NCBI GenBank assembly: GCA_045568435.1
Contig: JBJLBB010000006.1
Location: forward strand, 141,382-205,381
Length of the DNA: 64,000 bases
Direction: 5' to 3'
Source of the DNA: Candidatus Poseidoniaceae archaeon
GTDB taxonomy: Archaea; Thermoplasmatota; Poseidoniia; Poseidoniales; Poseidoniaceae
Shown here: positions 38,182 through 62,710 of the stretch, one piece after another
Position numbering within the stretch: position 1 is the stretch's first letter
Layout: the number at the start of each line of letters is the position of its first letter
Notes under the pieces: generated by a model
Databases searched by the model: none
What the model was told of the DNA's origin: nothing
What the model saw: only the letters and a program-made list of their open reading frames with translations
Made by a program: the position numbers and the translations under genes

Positions 38182-38916
38182 GTGGTGAAGGAAGGTATTC
38201 TAATAGCCGTTGAAGGTTTGGATGGCAGTGGTAAATCCACTCAAGCAAAACTACTGTTGAATTGGATTCGTGCCCTAGGTTTGCCTGTTCACCACACAGA
38301 ATGGAATTCAAGCCCTTTTATCAAAGCTGCAACCAAGGAAGGGAAAAATAGCAAGAGATTGAAACCAATGACTTTCCATCTAATACATGCTGCTGATTTT
38401 GCCGATAGATGGGCCCAACAGATTGAGCCGATGTTAGAAATTGGTGGTATTGTCATATGTGATAGATACAAGTTTACTGCAATGGCTAGAGATGGAGCGA
38501 GGGGTGTTTCGAACGATATAATCGAACAAAACTATTCGTTTGCTCCAGAACCTGACCTTACGATATATTTTGACATTCCACCAAAAATTGGCTATCAGAG
38601 AATAGTATCTGGAAGGCCATCGCTTAAATGGTATGAAGCGGGTTTGGATATGGGGTGGACTCATGACCCATTTGAATCATATAAAATTCTTCAAGGCAAG
38701 ATAAAATCGATTTATGACGGATTGGTGTCCGAGGGAAGAATTGAAAGAATTGATGCCAATGGTAGCGTGGCTGAAATTCAAGCCCGGGTTAGAAAATTAA
38801 TTGGCGATAAACTCGATTTCGCTAATATCGATACAATAGATGAAACTGACCGGATGGCGGAAAACATTCGGTCTTCTTCATTTGATTGGATGCAATTTCA
38901 TGAGGACGGTGAGTAA
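38182..38916 (+). CDS. Thymidylate-kinase-fold protein 1 (intact P-loop)
   Basis: IAVEGLDGSGKSTQ, AADFADR, ICDRY, PEPDLTIYFD and YEAGLD. Confidence 0.88.
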   Translation: MVKEGILIAVEGLDGSGKSTQAKLLLNWIRALGLPVHHTEWNSSPFIKAATKEGKNSKRLKPMTFHLIHAADFADRWAQQIEPMLEIGGIVICDRYKFTAMARDGARGVSNDIIEQNYSFAPEPDLTIYFDIPPKIGYQRIVSGRPSLKWYEAGLDMGWTHDPFESYKILQGKIKSIYDGLVSEGRIERIDANGSVAEIQARVRKLIGDKLDFANIDTIDETDRMAENIRSSSFDWMQFHEDGE

Positions 38917-39585
38917 ATGGGCAACAGTGGTAAATTGATTGTAATTGAGGGCCCGGACCATGTGGGCCGGTCACTACATGCTCGCCTTTTAGCAGAGCGA
39001 TTAGAAGCCCATGGAGTAGCAGTCTCAACTATTGGCTTAGCACGTTCGCAACTTTTAGGCGAACTTATCAAATCTCATTCAAATGAATTACATCAATTGA
39101 ATTGGCGCACCAGATCTTTGCTCTATGCAACAGACCTCAATGACCAAATAATTCATGAATTAGAAACACTATTAGAAGCTGGCTTCGTAGTGATTGCAGA
39201 TAGATATACACTTACACCGATAATTAGAGAAAAGATAAGAGGTGGCAATACTCGTTGGATAGAGGGACTATACAACCAGGCTCCAAAACCTGATTTGACA
39301 ATTGTACTTCATGCAGGTGGAAGGCGTCTACTAAATCGAATAATTCACAGTAATGATTTAGCTTCTTTGAATGGTTTTGAGGCAGGCATGGATTTGAATA
39401 TCTCGCCATCGGTTACGAAATCCTTCCTAGAATATCAAAAACTGCTGAAAGCCGCCTTTGCTGAATACGCCGAAGGGAAGGATATGCCTATCATCCCAAC
39501 AAAACAATCTGTTAAAGACGTTCACAAAGAAATTTGGAGTCATGTCAAACCAATCGTGAAAGATGTTCTTCAAGTTTTTAAATAG
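38917..39585 (+). CDS. Thymidylate-kinase-fold protein 2 (degenerate P-loop)
   Basis: IVIEGPDHVGRSLH (P-loop Lys replaced by Arg), LLYATD, IADRY, PKPDL and FEAGMD. It starts immediately after the stop of protein 1. Confidence 0.85.
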   Translation: MGNSGKLIVIEGPDHVGRSLHARLLAERLEAHGVAVSTIGLARSQLLGELIKSHSNELHQLNWRTRSLLYATDLNDQIIHELETLLEAGFVVIADRYTLTPIIREKIRGGNTRWIEGLYNQAPKPDLTIVLHAGGRRLLNRIIHSNDLASLNGFEAGMDLNISPSVTKSFLEYQKLLKAAFAEYAEGKDMPIIPTKQSVKDVHKEIWSHVKPIVKDVLQVFK

Positions 39586-40042
39586 TAACAGAATTTACCA
39601 AATCCTCTAAAGGGATTCTTATTCTGGGTATTGGAAAATCCACAATATGTTTCGTTGTTTTTGGAGGATAAAGGCGGCGGCTTTGGGCCCAATTTAGCAC
39701 ATCTTGTTTTGAAACATTAGAAAAATCGCTCCAGGGCCATAACTCTAGTTTGATGCTATCATTGTTTAGATACTCAACTTCGATAACTGGAATAAGGTTA
39801 AGCTTTAACTCGATGCTTGCTCGATATTTATGATGCCCATCAAGTATTGTTTTAGTTGTCTTATCAATCAAAATAGGTTTATGAAAAAAACCTTGTTTTT
39901 CCAACTTTTCTCGCATTTCTTGCAAGCGATCTGGGATGGTTTCCTCGTGAGGCAGTAAGTTGTCGATGTTAATTAATGACCACCCCATATTTAACTTTGA
40001 GAAAAGTTCGCTATTATTTATTGGGGTTGGATTGCTCATCAT
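39578..40042 (-). CDS. ParB/Srx-fold protein (SerK/SbnI-like N-terminal domain)
   Basis: LLPHEE, PILID, ILDGHHK and YPPKTTKH. The ATG at 40042 overlaps the upstream TGA (ATGA); the ORF-track start is 40060. Confidence 0.78.
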   Translation of the reverse strand: MMSNPTPINNSELFSKLNMGWSLINIDNLLPHEETIPDRLQEMREKLEKQGFFHKPILIDKTTKTILDGHHKYRASIELKLNLIPVIEVEYLNNDSIKLELWPWSDFSNVSKQDVLNWAQSRRLYPPKTTKHIVDFPIPRIRIPLEDLVNSVTI

Positions 40043-43000
40043 ATAAGCATCAATTCCCATATCCCTACAGAGCCAGAGTCCTCATTGGCCACTAATAACA
40101 ACGGAGTCCCTGTTGGGGAAACATCAGCTGAAACAAATTCCATATCCTCGGGATTTGAAGAGCCGTCCACTTGAATCCATTGTTGGAAAGTGGGATTATT
40201 GGGGTCTGTAATGTCATAAATCATAACCCCGAAACTTCGCTCCATTGAGACAAAGAGATACTGCCTTCCATCAATTTCTCCAACCTTAACTCCTTCAGGT
40301 TCAATCCCTTTATTATCATCTCTAGTATTCATTTCATCGACAAGGTGTTGGCCGTTATTGGTTGAATATTGTGAAAAGTCATGTCCACTATCCCATACCA
40401 TTTCCAAATCTGTTGTCCAAATGGAAAACGACCTTGCCCCTACTCCGCAGATATAATCTAAATCGCCATCACCATCATGGTCACCACAATTATTTGGTAC
40501 GTTCAGCCTTCCTAACTGGTTCATTTGTTGCATGTTAGAAGAATCTGGAAACCGCATTGGATCGAGGTTTGTCGAAGCAATTCGTATTTCTTCATTTAGG
40601 CCGATTTCTAAAATTCCTGATGAACTATTGAAATACCGGTAATCACGAAGATCCCCCTCATTCCCGGTTATCAGGTAAGTTACGCCATTGACTGTATAAG
40701 ACGTTATACCATCCGGCATATACATCGACATAACTGGCCAGGGCTTTGGATTGTAAGCATCTTCATCACTTGCATCGAGTGGATGTAATCTAATATTTAC
40801 GAATCCCATCGGGATATTGGTTTCAGTAGGTCCAGAATCGGTCATGATTGCTAAATTTAACTCGCCAGTAGGATTGAATTGCCAAGAGCCGGTGTCTACG
40901 AGGAAATTGAGTAAATCTATCGGCCCGTCGTTATTATCAAGATCACATAAGTTGGAAGTAGTAATCGTTGCAACAAAAACTTCCAATGATTTGTCATCGA
41001 TATAGGCTATCGTACCGATATTATTTGGACAATCGATGGAAAAGTCAACCCCTTCTAAGTCCTCTAGATTATCTGGGGTTTCGTGAATTGAGTGTATCTG
41101 TCCTGAAAAATCCCTAATTTCAATCAAATCAGATGAATCATGAACTATAATCAATTGTTGATTACCGATATAATCTAAACCTGAAATATCGCCGCCCTGA
41201 GTTGGTATTGTTGAGAAAGATGTAGTGCTAAATTGTTGGTTTGTTTTATTCAACCAATCAGATGATATTGCATAAACATGTAAGTCATTATCTGTTTGGC
41301 TACCTGCTACTAGGAAGCCAAATTCGTTTGATGGCCATGCTGTATCTCGATCTGTATTTGGAATGAATGTTAATGATTCTAATCCTTGTCCATCATCGAT
41401 GTCAACTGGTAAATCGCTTAGTGAGACAATCGAATGAGTTTCGAAGGTTGTTGAATAACTAAGTATTTCGACTTGAGTAGTCGATTCGTCTGCAGCAAAA
41501 ATTATTCCGTTTTCGTCACATGTTACTGCTTCATAGTCAGAACCGGTAGTGTAACTATCGACTGGAGTTCCTTGATTGTCGATCATATGTATTGACCCGC
41601 TGTCATCAGCTACCAAATACGCCGAGTACGCTGCGCAATAATTTAGACCGCTACCTTCCCCTGAACCAAGTAAAGTGCCGAGTGAGGTGAACGTAAGTGG
41701 CCCATCGTTAACTGCAGAATTCAAACTATTGTCAATTGATAACATGTAGGGGGTGTTAGAAATTGTTTGAAATTCTCCCGAGATGCTATTACCAACAATG
41801 GTTAATGCTTCTGGTTTATCTCCATATCTATCGCCGAGTTCAACGAATGGTGATTTCAAAACCGGATTAAGTCCCTGGCTTGCAGCCGTAGGACCTGCTT
41901 CTCCCCCAACATAAGCAGAGTTTGGATTGCCAGGTGAGAGGCCTGTGACGCCAAAAGTAGTCGAAGAATCTACCAATCGCCCCCATGATGTATCAGGGCT
42001 TAGTGCCGGGACAATTACGATATCAACAACGTTGCCTGCTGAATCTTCCATCGTGACTGACTCGCCGCCTGACGATATCTTAATCGGCAAGTGATGTGCT
42101 CCATTTTCATCTACTGTAACAGCAAAATCTTGGTTGCCATCATTGGTATCATCAGCAAACAGCAGTAAGTGGGAGTTGGCTTGTATTGACGAACCGGATG
42201 GAAAAGTGTAAGATTTTGCTGGATCATCATAGAATTTCCAACCTGTTAAATCAACCGGATTGGCAGTAGGGTTGAATAGTTCAATATAATCTGAATCGGT
42301 TACGCCATCTTGAAATGGATTTGGTGGTCCAAGAGTCACCTTGCTTGCTACCTCATTGATGACAATTTGATCGCTTACTATGGTAGATGATGGGTCGGTG
42401 ACTGGTTCGTCGACTTCTACATCGTTAATTTCATTCATTGACATCGCTTCTAAAACACCTGCTTCGGTAACAGAAGACTCAAGTTCGAGTAGGTTGGTGG
42501 CTTGTGAAGTATCAACTCTGAATACCCACTTACTAGCATCCGTACCAGTAAGTGAGTCTCGCTCGATAACTAGTAACTCATCTTGATTGATGGCAACCAT
42601 AGATGTTACTTTATCCATTTTACCGCCTGCAGAATAAGCTCCGTCTGTTAATTCAACTGGGTAGAGGTATTGCCCTGTTAATTCCATAATTGAGAGATCT
42701 ATTTCCAACAGTCTAATCCACCGCTCGGTAGTACCTGGTGTGCTCAATGATGTTTGCGTCATAGCAAAGGCAGTTGATTCATGACAGGCAACCGCTTCAA
42801 AGCCCTTATTCGACTCGATTTCTGCAATGGCTTCTGGAAGTATTGGAATATCGTTGTCACTCGCTTGGGCTATGGTTAAATTTTCTGGGACTAATCTTGC
42901 CAAGCGATTACCGTCGCCACCAAAAATTTGCAGTGATGGGATGCTTTCATCCCCAAGCAAGAATACGTTCAAATCGTCGACATTACAAACGGTTAGATCT

Positions 43001-44505
43001 TCGAAATCACCTTCCTCATTCAGGGTGACTAACGGTTCAGCGTCGACTGAAATTTGTTGGTTTATGCCGTCATATCTCATGATTGAGATTTCTGAACTAC
43101 TATCTGATAATAACGCGTAAACTTCCTGCTGTTGCTCATCTGCACCGAGGTACAGAAGTCCCGAGGTGTCTGTAACTGGAGAGTCTTCCCAAATCATTGG
43201 GTTATGGATTGCTGCACCGGATGAGTGTGGCTTAAATCCAAGTGGCATTAGTCTAGTAAATTCGCCGTTGATTACATCAAGTTCAGCAACTGCATTAGCT
43301 TCCTGTATTGCTACCCAAGCCATAGTTGAGTCGGGTGAAACCGTAATATATTCTGGTTCAAAATCTACGCTCAAGTTTGCACTAGGCCCAAAAACCCTAA
43401 TGCCTTGTGCGGCCAATTCCTCTCTTTGACTTTCGAATTGGTGGAAATATGCATGCTTCACATCGTCTTGATTTAATTCGTCCAAAGGCCCGCTGACGTC
43501 AATGATTGTCACACTACCTTCTGGGTCTGCCTTGTAATCTGCTGATGGTTGCCCTTCATTGGCAACTAAAATTGTATTACCATCAGGGGTGAAGGTAATC
43601 ATATCTGGTTGGTATCCAGCGTTAACAATTGCTAACGCTTCGCCTGATGTGTCAATAAAATAAACTAAACCAATCATTGGTTCATCCTTAATGATTGGAT
43701 ATTGGATGCCGCTAATTATCTCATATTCAGTTCTCTCTTTGTGAACTGCAATCGCAAGTGTACCGTCAGAATGTCTAATATCGATGCTGTTTGGCTCGCC
43801 TATTCTGGAAAGGTCAACTCTATCTTCTAGGACAGGAAAGGTTGGATTGCTCATATTTACAATGTCGATTGATTTTTCCAGTACGTTTACCAAAAATAAC
43901 CGTTGGGTTACGGGATCATAAGCTGGTATTTCCAATGTGCCAAAGGTTCCTGCATCATGGTCATACATACCGAGAAGGCGTGCAGATAAGGTTTGACCCT
44001 GCGCTGGAGAGCCATAATTGATTGTTAGCCCATTACAAATTTCTGAGTTGTACATCATATCCGTTCTTTCAAAAACCGTGGTGAAAGTACATCCTTGTCC
44101 AGCAAGAATTAGGGAACGGTCGTCTGAGCATGTCAAAATGGCTTCACCGTTAGCAAGCAACGCAATTTTACATCCTGAATCCAGATTGATAAGCCTCTCA
44201 CCTACTGGATAATATTCGATAGTAACTGATTTATCATCGCAATTAAGTTTCAGTTCTTGGTTATTTGTAATTTCATAATCACAATTTTGAATATATCCTG
44301 CATCAACTGTTAACATAACAGAAAGAGGGACGCCATTAGCCCCAACACAAGTAAGTTGGGAATTATTTGCATCTAATACACACTCTCTCATTTGAAAATC
44401 GGGTAATGGAGTGTATACTGTCTCTATTTCGTTTTCATTAGATATGCACCCTGTCAAAAACATAGTACACAAAATTGCTACAATAAAAATTGCTTTCCTC
44501 TTCAT
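40039..44505 (-). CDS. Giant secreted lipoprotein: choice-of-anchor-I (alkaline-phosphatase-associated) propeller with inserted phytase-like, LTD and SdiA-regulated-like domains
   Basis: Lipobox LTGC. Outer-domain motifs PDMITFTPDG..ILVANEG.P, EPEYI, MYMPDGI, NEGD.RDY, GARSFSIW, DNKGIEPEG and LLVANEDSG. LTD motif IVINEV...DYIELFN. Confidence 0.8.
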   Translation of the reverse strand: MKRKAIFIVAILCTMFLTGCISNENEIETVYTPLPDFQMRECVLDANNSQLTCVGANGVPLSVMLTVDAGYIQNCDYEITNNQELKLNCDDKSVTIEYYPVGERLINLDSGCKIALLANGEAILTCSDDRSLILAGQGCTFTTVFERTDMMYNSEICNGLTINYGSPAQGQTLSARLLGMYDHDAGTFGTLEIPAYDPVTQRLFLVNVLEKSIDIVNMSNPTFPVLEDRVDLSRIGEPNSIDIRHSDGTLAIAVHKERTEYEIISGIQYPIIKDEPMIGLVYFIDTSGEALAIVNAGYQPDMITFTPDGNTILVANEGQPSADYKADPEGSVTIIDVSGPLDELNQDDVKHAYFHQFESQREELAAQGIRVFGPSANLSVDFEPEYITVSPDSTMAWVAIQEANAVAELDVINGEFTRLMPLGFKPHSSGAAIHNPMIWEDSPVTDTSGLLYLGADEQQQEVYALLSDSSSEISIMRYDGINQQISVDAEPLVTLNEEGDFEDLTVCNVDDLNVFLLGDESIPSLQIFGGDGNRLARLVPENLTIAQASDNDIPILPEAIAEIESNKGFEAVACHESTAFAMTQTSLSTPGTTERWIRLLEIDLSIMELTGQYLYPVELTDGAYSAGGKMDKVTSMVAINQDELLVIERDSLTGTDASKWVFRVDTSQATNLLELESSVTEAGVLEAMSMNEINDVEVDEPVTDPSSTIVSDQIVINEVASKVTLGPPNPFQDGVTDSDYIELFNPTANPVDLTGWKFYDDPAKSYTFPSGSSIQANSHLLLFADDTNDGNQDFAVTVDENGAHHLPIKISSGGESVTMEDSAGNVVDIVIVPALSPDTSWGRLVDSSTTFGVTGLSPGNPNSAYVGGEAGPTAASQGLNPVLKSPFVELGDRYGDKPEALTIVGNSISGEFQTISNTPYMLSIDNSLNSAVNDGPLTFTSLGTLLGSGEGSGLNYCAAYSAYLVADDSGSIHMIDNQGTPVDSYTTGSDYEAVTCDENGIIFAADESTTQVEILSYSTTFETHSIVSLSDLPVDIDDGQGLESLTFIPNTDRDTAWPSNEFGFLVAGSQTDNDLHVYAISSDWLNKTNQQFSTTSFSTIPTQGGDISGLDYIGNQQLIIVHDSSDLIEIRDFSGQIHSIHETPDNLEDLEGVDFSIDCPNNIGTIAYIDDKSLEVFVATITTSNLCDLDNNDGPIDLLNFLVDTGSWQFNPTGELNLAIMTDSGPTETNIPMGFVNIRLHPLDASDEDAYNPKPWPVMSMYMPDGITSYTVNGVTYLITGNEGDLRDYRYFNSSSGILEIGLNEEIRIASTNLDPMRFPDSSNMQQMNQLGRLNVPNNCGDHDGDGDLDYICGVGARSFSIWTTDLEMVWDSGHDFSQYSTNNGQHLVDEMNTRDDNKGIEPEGVKVGEIDGRQYLFVSMERSFGVMIYDITDPNNPTFQQWIQVDGSSNPEDMEFVSADVSPTGTPLLLVANEDSGSVGIWELMLI

Positions 44506-44514
44506 AATTTCACC

Positions 44515-45529
44515 TCAGGTTAAACCTCTTACCTCGTTATTCATCAGTACAGTATATTCTGTATGCTCGATGTGAATCTTTACGTAACAAATTGGGAATT
44601 CATCTCCTGTACCGCAAATATCTATTCCATCTTCCATCAGTAAAATGCTTTCACCAAAAGTCCAGACGGTATCTTCTACCTCTTGAATTATCATGCATCC
44701 AGTGCCCATGGAACCAGGTCCTGCCTCAGGATTGATGTCTTGGCCAGACATCATGCCGTTTGTCCGGCTTGCCGTTGGTGTCTGATCTTGTTGAAAATTG
44801 ACTGAACCATCTGGAACTGCGGCATATGATTCTGTTGAGGAAAGCGCAGGCCAAGAGATATTTTGGTGAACTTCTCCTTGTGGATTTATCAGCGAAACCA
44901 TTTCACCTTCTGATTTGAGTTTGAAGTTCATGTGTAAGGGCCCTTCCTCTGGTTCATCATCGCCCCAAACAATAAGGTAGCCTCCAGCGGGAATACTGGT
45001 GCCTGCGGGGAATGTGTAACCTTCTTTGCCGCCTGCGACATACTCTTCGAACGCATCAGTCATCTTCCAGTTGGACAAATCCATTGGCTCTGCACCTGGG
45101 TTGTAAAGTTCCAGCCAGTCATCATAATCGCCGGTTTCGTCTTGTAATCCCGCATCGTTCGACGCGACGATTTCGTTAATTCTCACATTCGGGCTGCCCG
45201 AGCCTGTGTTCTCGACTTCTACTAGAGTTGGGGGTAAGCATGTTTCGTTGAGTGGATTGTTGAATTGTGTTCCATCAGAATTTACCACCTCGACCGTTAT
45301 TGTAAGATTCGCCCATTCTACTGAAGCCCCCATGTTGGATTCAAACTCCAAGTTTAACAATGCATCTTGTTTGTTGAAGCCTACTTTTTGGGGTGAATCA
45401 TAATCATGAACTATCATGTATCCTTGGATCTCATACCTAGTTTCCTGTATCATCACTAGAGGTACACCCGGCTAAGGCAAAGCTTAGCATCATAAAAATC
45501 ATCAAAAACGCTTTACTGTAATTATTCAT
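44515..45529 (-). pseudogene. Lamin-tail-domain (LTD) lipoprotein with a pilin-head-like domain; frameshift near 45440 (error or pseudogene)
   Basis: ATG 45529 gives MNNYSKAFLMIFMMLSFALAGCTSSDDTGN* (signal peptide and lipobox). The body continues in another frame (ORF 44515-45456) with INEIVA..DWLELYN..DLSNW. Confidence 0.75.
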
Positions 45530-46826
45530 TGTTATCCCTCTTGGTTATCATCTTCTTCGTTAGACGTTGCTTCATTTGAATTGGTCGGTGGTTCGTTAGA
45601 AGTTTCCGATTCGTTATTGGATATGAATATTTAGTATGTGCCATGGATTCATTGAAAATACTCTCTGGTAGTGGAACAAAGCCTACTTCTGAAATAATCT
45701 CTTGTCCTCGTGAACTGTAACCAAATTCCAGGAAAGGTAGAACCTTGGCCCAAGATGAATTATCAATGTTGAGATATATTTCTCTTGCGAGAGGAAAATA
45801 GGTTTGATTCTTAATTGACGAAACGGTCGGATGTATTACGTCTTCAATGCCGTCCGCTGCACTGTGGGTTAAATTGGCAGATATTGGCACAGAATGGAGG
45901 ACGGATTGGTGTGCTTCATAGTAAGAATAACCGAAAAAGCCTATCGCAGCGCCGTCTTGTGAAACCCCGTTGACAATGACGTTGTCGTTGGCGCTGTTTT
46001 GATAACCATTACCGCGTTGAGATGCAAAGGCTTCCACTGGGTAATCTCTTTCGCCAGCAAAACACTTGGTACAGAATACCATTTCGCCAAAGTATTCATA
46101 AGTACCAGATTGTAAATCCGGGCCCCAGAGTGATATTTCTTGGTCCAAACAATCGCTTGTATCGCCCAAATCCTTCCACTCACGAACTCCATCATCATCG
46201 TTATTTGGGGTCACGCTTGAAAGATCAAGACCGCCAAATTGTGAATAAACTAAGTCGCTTTCACTCCAATCTGAATAAATCCAGCGTAATTGTGCAACGC
46301 TGAGGCCGCCAATTGATTGTATACAACGGTCAGCATCACCGCCGCGGGCAACAATGAGGGTTACGCCGTCCATGGCAATTGGCATTTGGGTGAGAACGAT
46401 ATCGCTTGGTTTACAAGAAAAATACCTGGTACCAGATTCGAGAGTTGCCTCGATTGGTTTGAATGTTCGACTCATTGAACCAATATCGACATGGTCATTA
46501 GAGGTAGAGCAAACTGCAGAAGCCCCCACTCCCGAGCCGCCGCTGGCAACTGAGACTTGGATAGAGCCAATTTCTTCCCTAAAGCCCTCTGCCCATCCAG
46601 TTGCTAGCGGATACACAGTCGAAGACCCAGCGATCCTTATATTGCCACCAGATTGTTCGATTTGAGTGCTTCCATCAGTTATTGTATAATCTCCATTAGA
46701 TTCTTGCTTGCCTTCATCATTGGAAATGCACCCTGACATCATGGTAAAAACTAGTAGAGCCATCATAGTGAAGCAACGGAAATTATACTTCTCCATAGTT
46801 GCGGTAGAATGGTCAAATAGATTCAT
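45522..46826 (-). CDS. pstS: Phosphate-binding lipoprotein PstS (single domain; C-terminal tail probably frameshifted)
   Basis: Lipobox MSGC, IAGSSTVYP, SGGSGVG, DIGSMSR, SGTYEYF, IGFFGYSYY, YFPLAREIY and VGFVPL. Confidence 0.9.
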   Translation of the reverse strand: MNLFDHSTATMEKYNFRCFTMMALLVFTMMSGCISNDEGKQESNGDYTITDGSTQIEQSGGNIRIAGSSTVYPLATGWAEGFREEIGSIQVSVASGGSGVGASAVCSTSNDHVDIGSMSRTFKPIEATLESGTRYFSCKPSDIVLTQMPIAMDGVTLIVARGGDADRCIQSIGGLSVAQLRWIYSDWSESDLVYSQFGGLDLSSVTPNNDDDGVREWKDLGDTSDCLDQEISLWGPDLQSGTYEYFGEMVFCTKCFAGERDYPVEAFASQRGNGYQNSANDNVIVNGVSQDGAAIGFFGYSYYEAHQSVLHSVPISANLTHSAADGIEDVIHPTVSSIKNQTYFPLAREIYLNIDNSSWAKVLPFLEFGYSSRGQEIISEVGFVPLPESIFNESMAHTKYSYPITNRKLLTNHRPIQMKQRLTKKMITKRDNNE

Positions 46827-46939
46827 ACCCCGCCAATAGAATATTTAGTAATATTGAGATATAATTATCAAAATATAGTTTCTATGCATGTTGGTAGTAT
46901 AACCGAGCCTGTTAGTCGTAGATACCTAAAAAAATAGGA

Positions 46940-48436: not shown

Positions 48437-48468
48437 TGCAAAATAAATCATATTTTGTCCCCAAAACT

Positions 48469-54600: not shown

Positions 54601-55379
54601 GAATCGACCCAATAATCTCCCATTCCTGGGGTTGGGGCATCTGGTCGCTTGAAGATGTTGATTCGCTCTTCTTCTCCGGTGCTGTAGCCCTTAGCTTCTT
54701 GACTAGTGCCGGGTAATATGTCTAGAACCTCCCATGGCTCAACAGGTTTGTAAGTATATTCTGCTAAGCCCTCATCACAAAGCGTACGCTCTAAGTCAGT
54801 ATCTAAATCCCATACAGATTGGCCGTCTATGCTGGTAAATATCTCTGAGTCATTTTCTATGCCCATAAAAGCACCGTTAGAGAGTATTGGTCTTGGATCG
54901 TAATTGTCTCGAGTTGCAGCATAGTGAGTTTCTTCCCATTTTGCCTCTATAGTGATATTAGACCGATCTATGCGTAAGTCTGCATCGAAGGGTTCAACCC
55001 TTGCATCGCTAGGTACTGACAAACCAGACGGTATTTGGTCGGTTCTGTACTCTACAGTATTGCCGGAACTATCTAACCAGCTTGTTATGCTGTACGCTTC
55101 CCAAGAAGGATTCCAACTTTCTGCTTTCCAAGAAAGTTGTGTTTGTGCAACTGGTTTACTGCCTTCTCTTATCCCATCAACTTCAATTTCTTGTTCAGGA
55201 ACAAATGCCTCCTCTGTGATTTGTGTCAATAGAGTAACAAGAGCTAAACCGCAAACTAAAGCAATTGAAATAAACACGGATTTGCCAATTTTGGCGGTTG
55301 CATAACGGCGCTTTAACGAGCGTTGTGGAAGCAGGGATGTACCGAAAAGGCCATTGTAATTGCTCAGTCGTTCTCTCAA
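51687..55379 (-). CDS. pstA: Phosphate ABC transporter permease PstA with a very large extracellular insertion (1230 aa)
   Basis: C-terminal core [47 protein letters not shown]-like and LPVQVY.W. Confidence 0.9.
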
Positions 55380-57883
55380 TCGTATTCCTCCCTAAAACGA
55401 GTCATTATCCTGTGTCCGACCAAGTTTAATGCTAATGTAATGACAAATAGGTATAATCCAACTGCGAACAATGAATAGTATGGTGTTGTGCCAATAGGTA
55501 ATTCTCCTCCGATTCGTTGAGCAATATATGCAGTCATTGTTTGGGCAGATCTAAACATATTGTCTGAATATACTGCTAATGTTCCCACAGACAATGTCAC
55601 GGCCATCGTTTCACCTATTGCCCTTGATAAAGCGAGAATAATTGATGCCAATATGCCAGAGAGGGCCGATGGAATTGTTACTCTTGCTGTTGTTTCGGTG
55701 GGTGTTGCACCAAGAGCATAAGACGCCTGTCTCAAATTATCTGGCACTGCTCTCAAGGCATCTTCAGATAATGAAGCGATTAGGGGTGTAATCATTATCC
55801 CCACTACAATTGCTCCGTTTAGAGGATTGAATAGTTGGGGTTCTTGCGAGATCCACCCACGTTCGAGAAAAGATATGCCAATGTCTACCACTATTGGAGC
55901 GATGACTACGAAAGCAAAAAATCCGTAAACTACAGAGGGGATGCCTGCTAATAGTTCAAGAATCGGTTTGACAATATTTGCAACTCTAGGGCTGGCATAT
56001 TCGGACAAAAATATGGCTGTACCGAGTCCTAATGGAATGGCGATGACCAATGCACCTAAAGCAACTTGCAAGGTTGTTTGCAATAGGGAATTTACTCCCA
56101 TATGGAGGTTTGAATCTACTGTGACTAAACCAACTGTTGTTATGTCTGTCTTCCACCATGTCTGTGTGAAGAATTCTCCCAATGAGCCATTAACTCGAGC
56201 AACTACATCCAGATACATCAAAAGAATGGTTATTACCACTGCAATATTCATTGCTAATCTACTATCTGAATCAACAACTGCATATTTGTTATTACCTGAT
56301 TGATTCCTTGAGTCGTTGATTACCTTAGCAAACATTAACACTGCTACGCAAAGTGCAATAGTATGACCTATTTGGATAAAATAGAAGTTTGTGAATGAGA
56401 TGAAAAGCGAGAATATCCCTAGACTTAAAGTGGAATAAGGTAACTTTCCATCTAATTTCCAGCCAAAAAATGTCAATATGAAGCTTAATGCAGAGACTAA
56501 AAGAATGATTGACAAACTAGGTGGAACTAACATAGACATGGTACTTATGGTTGCCAAAAATGCAAAATTTGTTCTTAACACTGGCACTATCAAGTCTATT
56601 CGTTCAACTGGAATGTTTACTAACCAGCGAGGTGAAAATATTGTCAATACTACAACTAGGATGGTAATTACTCCCAACAACAGACCGAATTTATCTCTAT
56701 CTGGAGTGTATGGGTTTGGATCGTAAGCATTAGGTAATCCATCACTATCGATATCTTCGTCAATGTTATTTGTGATGCCGTCGCCATCAATATCATTATC
56801 AAGAAGTTTGCCTGCTCCATCAACTTGCTCATTTGCTACTCCATCGCTATCATAGTCAAACGGCAAATCCTTAATTTCCAACTTTCTCAAATTATCGAGT
56901 AAGTCCTGATGTGAATTATTGCCCCCTGTTGTAAAGTCGCTGGTGAAAATATATGATGATACCTCGTTTGAAAAATTATATGATGATGAACTAAAACGTG
57001 AAATTGATTCGCCTTGAAAATCAAAGAATGAGTATTGATCAATGGTGAAGCATCCATCGCTGGTTTTCTCGATACCACGAATAACAAATTCATCTTCAAG
57101 TGACTGGAGTATTGGTTGCCCCTCATTATGACAAAGTGTTACTTGATTGATGTTTATCTCGTCGTTCTTTTTGTAATCGGTGTTATTTTCATAATATGGT
57201 AATAGCGCTTGGTATTCTTCCATGCTGAGTCTAGCACTATCATCACCAACCCATATCGTCACCCACCATTCTCGAGCGAGTTCGGGGTCTTGTTTGTGTA
57301 ATATCAAGGCATTTTCATTATCTGCAATGTATTGTAAGGGTATCTTTGGATTCTCGTCATCCCAATGCTCCGGGTTTTGATCAAAGTATTCAGATAAATA
57401 TGAACGTTCTGAATCTAATCTTGGTCCAACGATTATTGTCCCATCAGCAAGCTGAAAAGCACTGCCTTGTCTATCGCTATCGTCTGTATAGGTTCCGCTA
57501 CTAGAGTCCCACCCGTAGGTATCTATCATTGGGTCAGACAGAAAGACCATGTGTTCCATATCCCAATCAACTATACAAAAAGTGTCTAGCCACAGTGGGT
57601 CAGATAGTTTTCCATCGTCATATATTGCAGCGTCTTTGATACTTGCCTTCAAATCTTCATCCCAATCTTGAGGTGGGGTAAATGAGTCGGCACCGCATGC
57701 AAATCCTCGATAGAATTTCGAACCGGATTCAAATAATACAAACACGATGCCGGCAGTGATCATTACCACGGTAGCAGCAAGGGCAAATAAGACGATACCT
57801 GGGGCACTTTCTTCTACTCTTCCTCGCCAACGCATAACTTGCCCCCCAACATTCTGCGTTGTGTTATGTGATGGCAGAGGCAT
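55376..57883 (-). CDS. pstC: Phosphate ABC transporter permease PstC with a large extracellular insertion (835 aa)
   Basis: Core GLGTAIFLSEY, KPILELLAGIPSVVYGFF, SEDALRAVP, SRAIGETMAV and LFAVGLYLF. The start is uncertain (possibly MRWRG). Confidence 0.9.
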   Translation of the reverse strand: MPLPSHNTTQNVGGQVMRWRGRVEESAPGIVLFALAATVVMITAGIVFVLFESGSKFYRGFACGADSFTPPQDWDEDLKASIKDAAIYDDGKLSDPLWLDTFCIVDWDMEHMVFLSDPMIDTYGWDSSSGTYTDDSDRQGSAFQLADGTIIVGPRLDSERSYLSEYFDQNPEHWDDENPKIPLQYIADNENALILHKQDPELAREWWVTIWVGDDSARLSMEEYQALLPYYENNTDYKKNDEININQVTLCHNEGQPILQSLEDEFVIRGIEKTSDGCFTIDQYSFFDFQGESISRFSSSSYNFSNEVSSYIFTSDFTTGGNNSHQDLLDNLRKLEIKDLPFDYDSDGVANEQVDGAGKLLDNDIDGDGITNNIDEDIDSDGLPNAYDPNPYTPDRDKFGLLLGVITILVVVLTIFSPRWLVNIPVERIDLIVPVLRTNFAFLATISTMSMLVPPSLSIILLVSALSFILTFFGWKLDGKLPYSTLSLGIFSLFISFTNFYFIQIGHTIALCVAVLMFAKVINDSRNQSGNNKYAVVDSDSRLAMNIAVVITILLMYLDVVARVNGSLGEFFTQTWWKTDITTVGLVTVDSNLHMGVNSLLQTTLQVALGALVIAIPLGLGTAIFLSEYASPRVANIVKPILELLAGIPSVVYGFFAFVVIAPIVVDIGISFLERGWISQEPQLFNPLNGAIVVGIMITPLIASLSEDALRAVPDNLRQASYALGATPTETTARVTIPSALSGILASIILALSRAIGETMAVTLSVGTLAVYSDNMFRSAQTMTAYIAQRIGGELPIGTTPYYSLFAVGLYLFVITLALNLVGHRIMTRFREEYD

Positions 57884-57929
57884 TGGACTCTTTTATGTTC
57901 CTAAATATACTATATAGTCATACATAGTT

Positions 57930-57968
57930 GAACCAAGTGGAAGGGGTTGCCCCCTTCGCACTTGATTC
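57930..57968 (-). terminator. Long hairpin with GCAA tetraloop between pstS and pstC (partial terminator or mRNA-stabilising element)
   Basis: Minus strand gaatcaagtgcgaagggg-gcaa-ccccttccacttggttc, beginning 28 nt after the pstS stop. Confidence 0.7.
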
Positions 57969-57995
57969 GGAGGACTTATGTTGACTCTATAGTAA

Positions 57996-60244
57996 TCAGC
58001 TGAAGTCGCCTTCAGCGGAAACTCTACGCCACATCTCTTGCCATGTTGCGTCATCTAGTGGAACGTATCCTACTTCAGAAATCTCGGCGGTTCCGTCTCC
58101 TGAGTAAGCCCAGATTAGGAATGCTGATACTTCGTCCCAAACGTCGTTGTTGACATTCATGTACAGTGGCCTAGAGAGAGGTGCGTAAGATCCGTCTCTT
58201 ACTGTACCTGCGTCTGGAATTACTGCAGTTTCTGTAGTGTCGCCCATACCGTATACATTGTCGTTTGCGACGCCTGCTGCTGATAGAGTTGCTTGATTTT
58301 CTGCATAGTAAGCAAAGCCGAAGTAACCGATTGCAGTTTCATCACCGTTTAGAGTGTTTACCAGTACGTTGTCGTCCGATGATTGAGTTCCTGCTCTAAA
58401 TCCTTGAGATGCTTCATCAAGTATCGACTCGAAGAAGTACTCGTAGGTGCCAGAGGCAGCGTCTGGGTACGCAAGAACAATTTCTGCGTCTGGACAGTTT
58501 GCATTAAGCTCTGACCACTTGTGGGTACTGTCATCGTTGTCACCGTTTGGTGTTACAGAGGACATATCGAGTCCTGCTGCACTTAACTCGGATGCGGTTT
58601 CAGCAGAGAAGATCCATCGTAGTTGAGCAACTGTTAGGCCGCCCATTTCCTGGATACACATATCAGCTGCACCGCCTTTCTTGGTAACCACGGACAATCC
58701 GTCTACAGCGACTACAAGTTGGGTTACAGTGATTGAAGTGTCGCCAACAGCACACTCAACTTGGCCGTTTTCGTCAACGCCGTCTTGTGTTTCTGTTGCC
58801 TTCCAATTTCTGGACATGTCTCCAATATCTACTTGGGAGCCTTTTGCTGAGTTAGCACAAACTCTACCTGCACCTGAAGATGAACCGCCAGATTCTACTG
58901 TGATTGTAGTATCGCCACAAATTTCTGTATATGCTTCAGCCCAAGCTTCCGCAAGTGGCAGAACCGTTGAGGACCCTGCGATTGAGATACTTTGTGCGCC
59001 ACTACAGAATGCGTCGTCAAAGATATCTGAATTTCCACCAGCAGTCATTCCTTTCAGGTATGAATATCTGCTAAAGAACATCTGAGCTTCTTGGTTGTCG
59101 TTTAGGCTAACATATCCTACTTCTCCAACCTTGTCTTGGCCCATTTCGGTGAACAATCCGTACGCCATGAATGGTAGTGTGTTTTCAAGTGAGGCTGCAT
59201 CGATTAATAGGTTCATGAACAATGGCCTGGACAATGGGTTGTAAGATCCGTCTCTAACTGATGTAGCGTCAGGAGCAACCATGTTACCTGCATCGTTTAG
59301 GACTGGTGATGCAGTTAGAGTTGCTAGGTTTTCTTGGTAGTAAGCATATCCGAAGTAACCGATTGCGGTCTCGTCACCGATTAGAGCGTTAACTAGAACA
59401 TTGTCGTCACTGGATTGTTGTCCAGATCTGAATCCTTGTTCAGCTTCGTGTAGAATTGCTTCAAAGAAGTACTCGTAAGTACCCGATGCTGCATCTGGGT
59501 ATGCTAGATTAATTTCAGCATCTGGACAGTCGCAGATAGTTCAGACCACTTGTGGGTGCTGTCGTCGTTGTCGCCGTTAGGGGTGACAGTTGACATGTCT
59601 AAACCTGCTGTTGAAAGTTCGGCTGCAGTCTCTGCGGAGAACATCCAGCGTAGTTGGTCAGGGGTTAGACCGCCCATTCCGTTTACACAGGTATCAGCAG
59701 CGCCGCCCTTCTTCATAACTACGGAAAGGCCGTCAAATGCAACTACAATTTGTCGTGCACTTCTTGATGTGTCTCCAACCAGACAATCCATAGTGTAACC
59801 ATCTTCGTCGATGGCTCTCTCGGTGTCTTTCCAGTCACGAGACATGTCACCAATGTCTACTGGTGTACCCTTTGCAGAGTTTGCACAAACTCTACCTGCG
59901 CCGGAGGAAGATCCACCAGATTCGACTGTGACGGTTACGCCTTCACAAGCCTCTGTGTAATATTCTGCCCATGCTTCTGCAAGTGGTAGAACGGTAGATG
60001 AACCGGCGATGCTAATTGAACCATCTGGCCCACATACAATGGTGCCGACATCGATGGTGCCGTCATCTACTGTTGAGTTGGTGCCGTCATCTACTGTTGA
60101 GTTGGTGCCGTCCCCAGTAGTGGTACCAGGGTCAGTGTTGTCGTCTTTGTCATCGTCATCACTTCCTAGACATCCGGCCATAGCTGAGACCATCATAAGT
60201 AAGATCAGTGTTATTGCTTTCATTTTTATGCTTTGAGTTTTCAT
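57996..60244 (-). CDS. pstS: Tandem double-domain PstS lipoprotein (~750 aa), split by a 1-nt frameshift near 59532
   Basis: ORFs 59504-60277 and 57996-59282 join if one base is restored in tct gc[n] gac tgt cca. The bridge reads CPDAEINLAYPDAASGTYEYFF...IGYFGYAYY, matching the second domain. Lipobox MAGC. Confidence 0.88.
60056..60112 (-). repeat. 24-bp coding tandem repeat (DGTNSTVD) in the PstS linker
   Basis: GGTGCCGTCATCTACTGTTGAGTT x2 plus a partial copy; each unit encodes an N-S-T sequon. Confidence 0.9.
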
Positions 60245-60299
60245 AGTATGCTCTCTCTCGATTCGGGGGTAGTTCACATAGTATTGTGTACTGCCTCCA

Positions 60300-60345
60300 C
60301 AAACTAATTATTTCACTATATTAATATATAGGCATATATATAATT
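60300..60345. promoter_or_regulatory. AT-rich divergent promoter region for pstS and the phoU regulator, with a CTATAT-N4-ATATAG inverted repeat
   Basis: CTATAT at 60316-60321 and ATATAG at 60326-60331, with flanking TATA-like tracts. Confidence 0.5.
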
Positions 60346-60391
60346 GGGGTGTCATGGGTATCTATCCGGAGTCATACGGAGGTGCGTTAAC

Positions 60392-61434
60392 ATGGAGATT
60401 GTGGGCAATATCGAGTATCGGAAACTACAGGTTACTGGTGGTTCTACATTCATTGTTAGCCTGCCAAAAAAATGGATCAGAAATAACGGTCTGTCGTCCG
60501 GAGACGTAGTAGGGGTAGAATGTTTAGCAAGTGGGGAAGTACAAATTACTCCTCACGAAGTAAAACAAAATAAACGCAGAGTATCTATTGACTTAAGCAA
60601 GTTCCCTAAAAGTGCGCTTTACGATTACCTTGTTGGCGCATATGTTTGCGGGGCTGATGTGATTACTATCACGATGAAAGATGGAATCCCAATTCAACAA
60701 AAAAGAATCATTAGAAGATTTCTTAGAGATACAAGAGGAATGGAGGTATCAGAAGATGAAGTTAAGAAAATATCGATTGTTTCACTACTAAATCCAAATG
60801 AATTGCCACTACAAACAAGTTTGAATCGAATGTATTTACTAGTAACAAGTTTGGTAGAAGATACACTGGGAGTACTTGCTGGGGACGATAAGGATATTAT
60901 TTCTGATTATGAAGACAGGGAACGGCAAATTGATGCTAGACGTTTACTTATCCATCGGCAAGTTGCTATGGCCCTACATTCGCCACAAATTGAAAGGGGT
61001 TTGGGTATTGATAGATATCAAGCTATGGAGCATGCAATCATGGCCAATTACTTAGAAAGGATGGGCGATCACGCGCAAACCTTTGCTAGTTTAGTTGATG
61101 GTGACCGAAACCATAAGATTGATTTTGTCGGAAAGTCAACTGCCAATGGCAGCGATACCAATATGGTTATCTTCACTTAGGAGCGATTATAAGAAACACA
61201 TACTCAAAAGATATTTCTGTCCTAATAAAAGCAAAACAAGACTTGACTAAAGCAACTGCCGATTTAGAGCATCATGAGAACGAATTGATGTCTTCACGGG
61301 CACGCGCAACCAGTGTTCTTTCTGAATTTAGAATATCTGAAATCGTTAGAAGATTATGTGGATATAGTATAGACCTTACAGAGACTCTAATCAATATGCT
61401 TATTGCAGGTAAGACCGAGGCCTATGGTAAGTAG
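60392..61434 (+). pseudogene. phoU: AbrB-PhoU archaeal phosphate uptake regulator, interrupted by two frameshifts (~61100 and ~61180)
   Basis: RKLQVTGGSTFIVSLPKKW (AbrB) and ERMGDHA. The protein continues in shifted frames as QLPMAAIPIWLSSLR, then AIIRNTYSKDISVLIKAKQDL...RRLCGYSIDLTE. GGAGGTG precedes ATG 60392. Confidence 0.8.
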
Positions 61435-61442
61435 GTGAGAAT

Positions 61443-62120
61443 ATGGTGCCGCCAATAAGAACAAATTTAGATAGTCGAATGAATACACTAAGGTCAGCGA
61501 TTTCTGACTTCTTTGGTTCAATCATTTCATCATACAATTTAGCAGTCAATGGAATAAAAAATTTCAATGAAGGGGACTTAAAAGAAATTTACAAATTAAG
61601 AAAAAGTGCTCAAAGACAAGCCGAGCATCTCTCACAAGATTTACTATTAGTGCTAACTCTTAACCAGCCCCTATTACAAGATTTGAGGATCATTGCTTCA
61701 TATCTAAGGGGCGTAGACGTAATTGAAAGACTCGCTCGTCATGCAAGAGATATCGCTGATGCACAGACTCTATGGCATGATATTGAAAATACTGATACGC
61801 CTCTGTTATCCGAATTATCCTCACTTGGGCATGAGACAGTAGCATTGATTGAAATAATGCGTGATTGCCTGGTAGACGAAAAAGGGGTGCCTGAAGAGTT
61901 GTTGAAAGAAAAGTGGATGTCTATTTCCGAATTATTTTCTAATATTTCAACCGAAATACTTGAAGTTCAAGGTCAATCTATCGGCGGCCGCGAAGGGAGA
62001 ATTTTGCTTAATACCATGGCTAAACGATTTGAACGCTCATCATATAATTTGATGAGGCTTGCAGACTTATGGCATTATGCGCTTGAAAACGAATGGATAC
62101 ATCTAGAATCTGTAGCATAA
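61443..62120 (+). CDS. phoU: PhoU-domain protein
   Basis: LNQPLLQDLRII...DVIERLARHARDIA and a second repeat KRFERSSYN. AGGTGA upstream. Confidence 0.8.
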   Translation: MVPPIRTNLDSRMNTLRSAISDFFGSIISSYNLAVNGIKNFNEGDLKEIYKLRKSAQRQAEHLSQDLLLVLTLNQPLLQDLRIIASYLRGVDVIERLARHARDIADAQTLWHDIENTDTPLLSELSSLGHETVALIEIMRDCLVDEKGVPEELLKEKWMSISELFSNISTEILEVQGQSIGGREGRILLNTMAKRFERSSYNLMRLADLWHYALENEWIHLESVA

Positions 62121-62710
62121 CGCCGGCAAGAGGGATTGAATTGGGTTATGGGTTAGAAATCGAACGTAGATTCTTTGTGGACGGCAGGGATTCAAAGCCA
62201 TGGCGGAATGTACCAAATCTGTCTAAGATAACGCAGTTTTATTTGGATATTGATTTATTCGAGATAGGGAATTTACAACTTTTTTACGATTCTATTCCAA
62301 TAGTGCCAATAAGTAAGTCGGAGGATAATTTAATCAGCAAAGAGAACTTCTCAAGTGCAAGATTAAGATTTATTGACGACAAGATTATTTTGAGTATAAA
62401 AGGGAAAAAAAATTACGATACTGCAATGGAGTTTGAATGGGAATTATCAGAAAAACCTAGAGGCATTAACCTCGATGATTATCCCTTCGTTGAGAAAACT
62501 CGATACTTTTGGCCCAATAAAGATGGTTTGACATGGGAGATTGATGAGTTTGAAGGGGGGTTGGCCGGCTTGGTTTTAGCCGAAGTCGAATTACATGATT
62601 CTACACAGATTGTTGAAATTCCAGAATGGGCCGGTTCTGAAATTACCGGATTGCCAGGATGGTCTAATTCCGCTTTAGCGAAGACTATTGAATCGTTTAA
62701 ACAGGATTAA
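62093..62710 (+). CDS. CYTH/triphosphate-tunnel metalloenzyme
   Basis: EIERRF (ExExK-like), RLR, EFEW, VEKTRY, WEIDEF.G...GLVLAEVEL, P.W.G.EITG and SN..LA. The true start is probably near 62141. Confidence 0.88.
   Translation: MDTSRICSITPARGIELGYGLEIERRFFVDGRDSKPWRNVPNLSKITQFYLDIDLFEIGNLQLFYDSIPIVPISKSEDNLISKENFSSARLRFIDDKIILSIKGKKNYDTAMEFEWELSEKPRGINLDDYPFVEKTRYFWPNKDGLTWEIDEFEGGLAGLVLAEVELHDSTQIVEIPEWAGSEITGLPGWSNSALAKTIESFKQD

Follow-up and report, generated by a model that had tools for sequence, protein, structure and literature searches.

Marine Group II (MGII) archaea, as yet uncultured, rank with the most abundant archaea in surface-ocean waters. To our knowledge, the way in which they cope with phosphate scarcity has barely been described. 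A 64,000-nt stretch of a Candidatus Poseidoniaceae archaeon genome (contig JBJLBB010000006.1 of assembly GCA_045568435.1; hereafter the window, and G000 for the genome) raises this question for a single locus. Does the run of phosphorus-related genes at about 38072-62700 belong to the fixed inheritance of its lineage, or does it move between species? We consider it probable that this block is a flexible genomic island, that its genes together form a phosphate-stress toolkit, and that it was recently passed between species. A first-pass annotation, made from the sequence alone, had drawn a phosphate-starvation island at 38182-62710, and these limits agree almost exactly with the recombination tract found against one relative, G076 (about 38072 to about 62700).

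A 208-kb contig, in a genome of 2.1 Mb (9 contigs, 94.55% complete), contains the window, the left half of which is rich in archaeal markers, among them MCM, the thermosome and GatE. Working labels are used for the relatives' genomes (G###), contigs (C##) and loci (L###); estimated completeness is 83% for G011, 92% for G057, 91% for G076, 96% for G041 (one contig) and 92% for G052. Pfam and NCBIfam scans covered the 19 open reading frames (ORFs) of the island region and flanks. The presence of the flank genes was surveyed in 41 relatives, and that of pstC, the cPPK3-like kinase gene and PlcP in 151 Poseidoniales genomes, while slot content was read in detail in 10 congener loci.

The same island, with the same gene order, was found in three further species-level genomes (G057, G076 and G011). 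A 53-kb contig of G076 (C28) is 67-75% identical to G000 at the nucleotide level up to window position 37108, lacks the 209-aa gene that follows in G000, and is then 89-96% identical from about 38072. Three-way alignment places the restart of homology in the promoter of the first kinase gene and, with sliding identity, which goes from 67-71% to 89-94%, the left end of the shared high-identity tract at 38072-38181. At the other side, an 83-kb contig of the same genome (C60) is 81-87% identical from 59500 to about 62900 and 71-76% identical in the DegT gene and beyond. In G057, a 17-kb contig (C31) runs from the GFO oxidoreductase gene through the beta-propeller gene into the island; identity passes from 74-84% to 94-100%, and no drop follows in DegT or in what remains of the contig. 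The island of G011 is 89-92% identical to that of G000; of 20 stretches sampled elsewhere in this genome, 13 could be aligned to G000 (71-82% identity) and 7 could not.

The same switch was observed in the coding sequences. Between G076 and G000, amino acid identity is 40-88% for the flank genes (10 genes), the beta-propeller protein being only 62% identical, and 87-98% for the island genes; the corresponding ranges for G057 are 43-95% and 93-100%. Four-fold degenerate sites are identical between G076 and G000 at 359/1030 positions (0.35) in the flank and at 1981/2656 (0.75) in the island, and the values are 0.45 and 0.89 for G057 and 0.40 and 0.80 for G011. The border is sharp in G076, where the CYTH gene has an island-like value (0.66) and the adjacent DegT gene a flank-like one (0.36). 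A silent-site jump of this kind is beyond what purifying selection can produce, and the block is much younger than the species that share it. The silent-site jump on single contigs is direct evidence of transfer between species.

These data also bear on a cluster that was ancestral and vertically inherited, in which the look of an island would come from losses without any horizontal exchange. Such a history would fit the gene order kept in two genomes of another genus (G045 and G166), the parts found in the other family (G118 and G087), and the kinase pair that stands alone at the site in G004 and G008 (at a flank-like 66-77% nucleotide identity), which looks like a deletion remnant. However, in three species pairs silent sites are identical about twice as often in the island as in the flank, the switch falls within single contigs of G076 and G057, and an island value of 0.75 beside 0.35 in adjacent core genes is impossible under vertical descent. 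The silent-site data already point to a coalescence of the island much younger than the species split, and we regard a purely vertical history as improbable.

An error of metagenome assembly or binning, in which island contigs had been joined to or binned with other species, would produce a similar picture. All the compared genomes appear, from their contig counts and completeness, to be metagenome assemblies, the island of G011 is spread over three short contigs (5-12 kb) without a link to core sequence, and one contig with Poseidoniales-type genes (L078) was assigned to a bacterial metagenome-assembled genome (MAG). Against this, the island and flanks of G000 are on one 208-kb contig, C28 of G076 and C31 of G057 both cross the left junction, and C60 of G076 crosses the right junction into flank of 71-76% identity. 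An independent metagenome contig of 8772 nt also spans the left junction, bridging 35802-44573 with 8 differences, and the island copies are 4-12% apart at the nucleotide level and are not one reused sequence. We hold an artefact to be extremely unlikely. In 15 DNA runs from four studies, at least 92% of the sampled words of the left-junction stretch were present.

How does the block move? No integrase, transposase or relaxase domain was detected by Pfam in the 19 ORFs, no tRNA was found in the 64,000-nt window, and no terminal direct or inverted repeats bracketing the island were found; the first-pass annotation had likewise seen no integrase, tRNA or terminal repeat. The sole long repeats are the tandem units of pstS, the others being short two-copy matches of 16-35 nt unrelated to the borders. 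The right end of the tract lies between the CYTH gene and DegT in the comparison with G076 and beyond DegT in that with G057. An integrative mobile element, whether integrated site-specifically or as a transposon-like cassette, would account for the use of the same insertion slot in several species and would find some encouragement in a HerA/FtsK-like fragment just past DegT. Yet the mobility genes, tRNA and flanking repeats expected of it are missing from the ORFs and window just described, the tract ends before DegT with one partner and past it with the other, and the HerA-like stretch aligns with G076 at a flank-like 71-76%, so that we give such an element very little probability. The fragment itself, outside the window (L012:278-745, G000:C6), is a 155-aa ORF corresponding to the N-terminal part of a HerA/FtsK/TrwB-type ATPase and is followed by ORFs without a family. 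Since integrase, tRNA and repeats are absent, the position is the same and the tract ends differ between partners, homologous recombination in conserved flanks is the most economical mechanism. The island most likely moves in this way, as had been suggested at first pass.

A site of this kind should be found empty in relatives, a check that had been proposed with the first-pass annotation. The left flank is a core gene for a beta-propeller surface protein (34973-37333, reverse strand; Pfam Beta_propel, E 1e-120), present in 36 of the 41 relatives, and the right flank a core gene for a DegT-type aminotransferase (62697-63803, reverse strand; Pfam E 1e-101), present in 38. The two are separated by 0.7-2.2 kb in 14 same-genus genomes in which both are on one contig, versus 25.4 kb in G000, and the empty site is thus observed. 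The slot holds almost nothing in the congeners G012 and G015 and about 1 kb in G003, G009, G013, G016, G018 and G020, which in G009 is a gene for a winged-helix (wHTH) membrane protein. In G001 it holds the 209-aa gene, and in G004 and likewise in G008 the kinase pair alone; relative to G004, the structural insert is 39578-62120. The 209-aa gene (37428-38057, forward strand) encodes a membrane protein with two hydrophobic segments and no Pfam or NCBIfam match, and is a variable neighbour unrelated to phosphorus: it is at the same site in G057 and G001, is not at the site in G076, and is found elsewhere in G003, G009, G018 and G020.

Within the genus the distribution is patchy. A pstC gene was found in 5 of 24 congeners plus G000 itself, and G041, which is one contig and 96% complete, gave no pstC match. 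A short type of pst is located elsewhere in the congeners G012, G013, G015, G020 and G046, in some of them beyond DegT, while the island block occupies the same position, between the beta-propeller gene and the CYTH-DegT pair, in G000, G057 and G076.

Parts of the block are nonetheless inherited together well beyond the genus. G045 and G166, from another genus, have the kinase pair, the ParB-like gene, the glycosyltransferase, PlcP, pstB-A-C, a triple pstS, AbrB-PhoU and PhoU, in a version without the giant protein, the LTD proteins and the extra PstS. In G118, from the other family, a choice-of-anchor-I gene (roughly 500 aa) and the kinase pair come after pst. The kinase pair follows PlcP and the glycosyltransferase in 14 of 21 Poseidoniales-type loci. 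Of the 151 genomes, 40 have a pstC above cut-off, divided by open-frame length into 18 of giant type, 15 of short type and 7 in which PstC and PstA share one fused frame. The cPPK3-like gene, found in 30 of the 151, is concentrated in the giant type (17/18), against 0/15 of the short, 1/7 of the fused and 12/111 of those without a pstC above cut-off. PlcP was found in 15 genomes, of which 11 have pst of the giant type. Because the core module is old and conserved in order, part of the patchiness must reflect loss and not gain, and differential loss surely explains part of the distribution. The order has thus long had the cassette as a functional unit, with gain, loss and reshuffling of its pieces.

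The presence of the island is matched by the absence of another phosphate carrier. PiT/PHO4 (PF01384) was above cut-off in 31 of the 41 relatives; it was found in 0/4 island-bearing congeners (G000, G011, G057 and G076) versus 20/26 other congeners, including the island-free G041 and the short-pst G046, these being raw counts over genomes that are kin to one another and incomplete. In this genus, the island goes with the absence of the PiT carrier. The PiT gene adjoins DegT in G012, G013, G021 and G024, with an AbrB-PhoU-like gene in between in G012 and G013. Since PiT and AbrB-PhoU-like genes are found there too, the DegT neighbourhood is a hotspot for phosphate uptake in the genus.

As to the genes themselves, the phosphorus content described at first pass was borne out by Pfam and NCBIfam scans and by profile and structure matches, with corrections to pstS, to intergenic composition and to five genes. 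Almost every gene had been said to relate to phosphorus. This holds for 12 of the 17 island genes, the families of which are associated with taking up, sensing, storing or sparing phosphate; for the ParB-like gene, the two LTD genes, the glycosyltransferase and whatever catalysis the giant protein may perform, the families offer no direct link. The locus could be a general cell-surface and transport locus beside glycosylation genes, with phosphate stress not the organising theme. In keeping with this are the five genes without a demonstrated phosphorus link, the hypervariable, surface-antigen-like pilin-signal LTD protein, and the envelope-sugar neighbours at 32084-34925 and 62697-63803 (GFO oxidoreductase, GT2, TupA-like ATP-grasp and DegT). 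The 12 phosphate-tied genes of 17 argue against it, as do the co-occurrence of the same partners in other genera and the way in which the presence of the island tracks the absence of the alternative phosphate carrier, and we see only a slight chance that it is right. The envelope-sugar neighbours are themselves patchily present among congeners.

The Pst importer encoded in the island is of unusual build. The conserved parts of PstA, PstB and PstC all exceed NCBIfam equivalog cut-offs and a phoU gene is adjacent, as in canonical PstSCAB-PhoU. PstB (50575-51690, reverse strand) scores 389.1 bits with TIGR00972 (cut-off 343.2) over residues 125-371, after an acidic N-terminal extension of ~120 aa. 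The permeases differ from the canonical ones in size: PstA (51687-55379, reverse strand; TIGR00974 204.7 bits, cut-off 193.45, residues 923-1225) has 1230 aa and PstC (55376-57883, reverse strand; TIGR02138 245.9 bits, cut-off 196.45, residues 548-830) has 835 aa, versus 272 and 296 positions in the respective NCBIfam models. In PstC, the first transmembrane segment (30-48) is followed by an extracellular insert of ~350 aa and by extra transmembrane segments; in PstA, an extracellular insert of ~720 aa separates the first segment (34-52) from the next at 774. DxDxDG or DIDGDG repeats, which we take to be of the thrombospondin type 3 calcium-binding kind, are invariant in both ectodomains across genera (51687-57883). 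The ectodomains gave no Pfam match at E values up to 5, and the ESM Atlas no usable match for that of PstA. AlphaFold2 models from shallow alignments were too poor for a fold search, with a mean pLDDT of 53.6 for PstC (11 sequences) and 38.6 for PstA (8 sequences).

A further departure from the canonical transporter is the binding protein, which is a fusion of two or three domains. The first-pass annotation had called pstSCAB; PstC, PstA and PstB stand, and the operon pstS (57996-60277, reverse strand) proved to be a fused multi-domain lipoprotein gene that in the window has two units, as tandem copies, and a frameshift near 59507-59540, giving open frames of 267 and 514 aa (TIGR02136 182.4 bits, below the cut-off of 206.6). 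It is a single frame of 1071-1109 aa in G057, G076, G048 and G053, with three phosphate-binding-protein (PBP) domains by Pfam in G057 and G048, the two scanned; the window gene is about 1 kb, or one unit, shorter than that of G057. The tandem copies are 73-76% identical at the nucleotide level. An extra PstS-like lipoprotein, which had been predicted, is intact (45522-46826, reverse strand; PBP_like_2 E 5e-15; TIGR02136 141 bits, below the cut-off of 206.6) and begins with the lipobox MMSGC. The PstS proteins and the giant 1488-aa protein all begin with lipobox-type signals. Lipid-anchored PstS proteins would pass phosphate to a high-affinity PstCAB importer with large ectodomains carrying repeats of the calcium-binding type.

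Two PhoU proteins had also been predicted and are present. An AbrB/SpoVT-PhoU regulator (60344-61180, forward strand; Pfam PhoU E 5e-11, MazE/AbrB domain E 1e-6) is divergent from pstS, with which it is paired in all pst types examined, and a PhoU gene follows (61443-62120, forward strand; Pfam PhoU E 8e-8, TIGR02135 E 1.5e-11); their PhoU domains score 43.3 and 33.0 bits versus a Pfam cut-off of 23.5. Judging from these families, the two proteins would control the block and derepress it at low phosphate, the AbrB domain of one of them being the candidate DNA-binding part.

Next to the importer genes is a pair for which a role in sparing phosphorus is predicted. The metallophosphoesterase (49614-50519, reverse strand) was assigned to the PlcP type of phospholipase C, which functions in lipid remodelling, from its homology to Erythrobacteraceae and Sphingomonadales proteins and from its motifs. 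These proteins are the closest outside Poseidoniales among 283 confirmed matches (44-49% identity, E about 1e-75), and a GT4 (Agt-like) gene lies downstream of the bacterial homologues in both loci inspected (L090 and L113). The motifs DxH, GD, GNHD, HGD and GHIH are all invariant in the alignment, and the relationship to LpxH is only distant (E 2e-5). That the bacterial homologues are PlcP rests on the naming of Erythrobacter sp. NAP1 as a plcP-agt strain in PMC4796936, which describes the plcP-agt arrangement for Erythrobacter and SAR11. The adjacent glycosyltransferase gene (48535-49617, reverse strand) overlaps the stop codon of PlcP and encodes a GT-B enzyme of PF13528, the MJ1255/VC2487 family (Pfam E 8e-37), with no match among solved structures. 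It adjoins PlcP in 20 of the 21 Poseidoniales-type loci. The initial call of PlcP plus a glycosyltransferase is thereby upheld.

As in the PlcP-Agt systems of marine heterotrophic bacteria, a metallophosphoesterase is followed by a glycosyltransferase beside phosphate-stress genes (PMC4796936). Unlike them, the island has a PF13528 glycosyltransferase in place of the GT4 Agt, is without a Pho box or PhoB, and belongs to an archaeal host, the lipids of which are predicted to be ethers on a glycerol-3-phosphate backbone (PMC6461757). Of the relatives retrieved from outside the order, the nearest to this PlcP are alphaproteobacterial. In PMC6461757, glycerol-1-phosphate dehydrogenase is reported from 0/270 Poseidoniales genomes and the glycerol-3-phosphate enzyme from nearly all of them. 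Because Poseidoniales encode the latter and not the former, a lipid-swap step is plausible: PlcP would strip membrane phospholipids of their phosphate head groups, and glycolipids would be built in their place by the coupled glycosyltransferase, sparing phosphorus. No archaeal PlcP was found in the literature searched.

The PlcP sequence was 90-94% identical in four loci that were retrieved, of which only L068, a 4.4-kb contig, may be an additional genome. G052, of the same genus, has a PlcP of the type of other genera (62% identical), and pstC and PiT were not found in it at 92% completeness. L078, a 3.6-kb contig assigned to a bacterial MAG, has a Poseidoniales-type PstA (79%), PstB and PlcP and was probably mis-binned.

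The island opens with two adjacent genes of the thymidylate kinase family, which the first-pass annotation had linked to storage. The first (38182-38916, forward strand; Thymidylate_kin, annotated as thymidylate kinase) encodes a putative cPPK3-like catalytic subunit of a polyphosphate kinase. The best solved relative is S. tokodaii STK_15430 (2plr/5h70; E 6e-52, 180 bits), compared with ~1e-12 and 51 bits for the best canonical dTMP kinase, and its Walker A motif GSGKST is invariant in 11/11 orthologues. The second gene (38917-39585, forward strand; Thymidylate_kin) encodes a paralogue with a degenerate P-loop, a candidate rPPK3-like partner subunit. The same chain is its best solved relative (E 3e-20), and its Walker A is GPDHVGRS, with lysine replaced by arginine; G17 and R18 are invariant in 12 orthologues. 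A third, canonical dTMP kinase is encoded elsewhere in G000 (C2:336022); its domain (C2:336022-336534) lies within a 455-aa open frame and may be fused to another domain. PPK1, PPK2 (PF02503, PF03976) and PPX were not found in G000 at 94.55% completeness.

In Sulfolobus, the pair Saci_2019/2020 is a heteromeric polyphosphate kinase, PPK3 (PMC12995831, 2026). According to the accessible part of that source, 5h70 is a cPPK3 homologue, PstC and PstS are among the typical neighbours of PPK3, most holders of PPK3 are without PPK1 or PPK2, and rPPK3 is without the arginine of the DRX motif; that text makes no mention of Poseidoniales. The island pair resembles PPK3 of Sulfolobus acidocaldarius in consisting of adjacent thymidylate kinase paralogues, with a canonical dTMP kinase elsewhere and pstS and pstC nearby. 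It differs in the Walker A substitution of the second subunit and in the DRY motif discussed below. A PPK3 reading of the pair is supported, the DRY feature of rPPK3 being the part not matched. As such, the pair would interconvert ATP and polyphosphate, in keeping with the storage role suggested for it.

At the opposite end, the 205-aa neighbour of DegT (62093-62710, forward strand) gave no Pfam match as a single sequence even at E 5. A profile of 12 orthologues matched the triphosphate-tunnel protein NeuTTM (2fbl, E 5e-19; 3typ, 6e-19), and the CYTH call made for this gene at first pass is right. The usual N-terminal motif of the CYTH family is ExExK; here it is EIERR, with E22, E24, R25 and R26 invariant and an arginine at the usual lysine position. 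The gene adjoins DegT in 10/10 congener loci. Its product could possibly handle short polyphosphates.

The remaining genes are for the most part predicted surface proteins, and for these a scavenging role had been proposed. The largest (40039-44505, reverse strand) encodes a 1488-aa lipoprotein with the lipobox FLTGC, in which a choice-of-anchor-I domain (choice_anch_I, E 3e-103) is split in two by phytase-like (E 5e-30), LTD (E 4e-16) and other inserts. Solved structures gave only a weak match to an S-layer propeller. Plain choice-of-anchor-I genes of roughly 500 aa adjoin pst in G118 and G087; the domain is described, in PMC11878542, as a seven-bladed propeller with calcium sites and without enzymatic function. 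An LTD-domain protein follows (44515-45456, reverse strand; Pfam LTD E 4e-20), which is 97-99% identical in G057, G076 and G011. The second LTD protein (46940-48436, forward strand) has an archaeal class III, pilin-type signal (Pilin_N, arch_flag_Nterm, LTD) and is the most variable gene of the island, the variable spot spanning 46500-48500, with 51% amino acid identity in G011 versus 94-99% in G076 and G057. The interval 44575-48626 was strain-variable in metagenome contigs, and contigs of two metagenome runs have 190 other letters in place of 169 nt upstream of this gene. The giant protein and the LTD proteins of the earlier description were thus found, the former with a phytase-like domain. 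At the cell surface, the 1488-aa lipoprotein and the two LTD proteins would probably free organic phosphorus or retain it, the former being the candidate scavenger.

Between the kinase pair and the giant protein is a gene for a 160-aa protein of ParB/Srx fold resembling the N-terminal domain of SerK (39578-40060, reverse strand; NCBIfam SerK E 3.8e-19, below cut-off; Pfam ParB_N E 3e-4), which in other genera too has the kinase pair on one side and the glycosyltransferase gene on the other. One metatranscriptome library contained contigs on four island genes, namely those for the giant protein, the LTD protein, the extra PstS and the pilin-signal LTD protein, which is compatible with their transcription and is not proof of it. 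Contigs of this library left 30001-32668 bare and covered little of the beta-propeller gene, an uncovered stretch proving nothing.

The intergenic regions had been described as notably TA-rich compared with the left half of the window. This claim is weak: their GC content is 0.347 (8 regions, 895 bp) versus 0.399 (17 regions, 1460 bp). Intergenic composition was rejected as a sign of foreign origin, the difference being 5 GC points on 895 bp, with coding GC at 0.422 versus 0.414. The GC content of the window is even, at about 0.39-0.45, with a single rise to 0.477 over the pstS repeats. The word ACTATA/TATAGT has 8 copies in 6 of the 8 island intergenic regions (38058-38181, 46827-46939, 50520-50574, 57884-57995, 60278-60343 and 61181-61442) and none in the 17 left-half regions, and TATAG-rich repeats are also found in the divergent abrB-phoU/pstS promoter of other genera. 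The word may be an operator or a mere flavour of the promoters. Far from the island, two PTH2 peptidyl-tRNA hydrolase genes stand in tandem (2257-2709 and 2706-3086), overlapping by a few bases.

Several observations weigh against a recently exchanged phosphate-stress island. The gene order of the core module (PPK3 pair, PlcP-glycosyltransferase, pst and PhoU) is conserved across genera and in both families, and the GC content and coding composition of the island are the same as in the rest of the window. Three DNA runs, each from a different study, gave word depths for flank and island contigs of 32.5 vs 36.2, 15.6 vs 16.5 and 49.9 vs 53-59, figures that cannot measure island-to-flank read coverage, all four runs having consisted of contigs. 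As these depths are similar, they give, for contigs, no sign of an island-free sub-population, and the variability that we show is between species and not within one. On the functional side, the second kinase retains D95-R96 of the DRY motif in 12/12 orthologues, a feature that the PPK3 paper reports as replaced in rPPK3, and no enzyme activity of choice-of-anchor-I or LTD domains in such a setting was found in the literature. Lastly, the operon's own PstS is broken in G000, frameshifted and one unit short, which may be an assembly error or real decay. The silent-site jump between species stands beside these points, and recent exchange of a phosphate-stress island remains the explanation to which we assign a high probability.

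Phosphate islands are familiar from marine bacteria. In Prochlorococcus and SAR11, phosphate-uptake genes vary among close relatives, lie in hypervariable regions and do not follow phylogeny. Those islands are bacterial Pho regulons with PhoBR, whereas the Poseidoniaceae island shows no PhoA, PhoX or phosphonate genes. Of the known systems, the phosphate-related flexible island of the alphaproteobacterial order HIMB59 comes closest, with the same logic and the same hallmarks. As described in PMC10734472, it has a pstSCAB-phoU core with an optional phosphatase, polyphosphate kinase, LpxH-like esterase and glycosyltransferase; its genomic position is constant, its similarity is above the genome average, its borders are without insertion sequence (IS) elements or tRNA, and homologous recombination was proposed. 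The Poseidoniaceae island differs in its archaeal host, in having PhoU and AbrB-PhoU and no PhoR/PhoB, in its PPK3-type kinase in place of a bacterial ppk, and in its giant permeases and fused multi-domain PstS. Moreover, every HIMB59 island recovered in that study had pst, while many congeners here show none, and it was for HIMB59 that a correlation with phosphate was shown (PMC10734472). Of the traits of flexible islands in the sense of Rodriguez-Valera and co-workers, constant position, variable presence, excess similarity and borders without integrase, IS or tRNA are seen in the present block. For MGII, Tully (2019) notes that the phosphate-binding subunit occurs in some subclades, and nothing beyond that; no phosphate island was found in the MGII literature searched, the supplementary tables of which may list such genes.

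What would such an island mean for these archaea? The 'phosphate island' strategy of marine bacteria would extend to archaea, with low phosphate as the presumed selective agent. The newly described PPK3 family would be extended to a new archaeal order, and the bacterial-type phospholipase C would offer a testable handle on the disputed nature of MGII membranes. The unusual architecture of the Pst importer deserves to be pointed out. More tentatively, and as a reading that we hold to be less likely than not, we suggest that MGII may run a bacterial-style phosphorus-sparing programme as an inter-species cassette, made up of PlcP and its archaeal-type glycosyltransferase, which would trade phospholipid head groups for sugars on glycerol-3-phosphate-based membranes, PPK3 as the sole polyphosphate enzyme, and the giant Pst, and that with the loss of PiT its bearers may be low-phosphate specialists; as part of the same suggestion, the giant importer, with its triple PstS fusion and ectodomains of 350-720 aa, may be previously undescribed. 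The presence of the island together with the absence of PiT may then serve as a marker set for phosphate stress of MGII in metagenomes.

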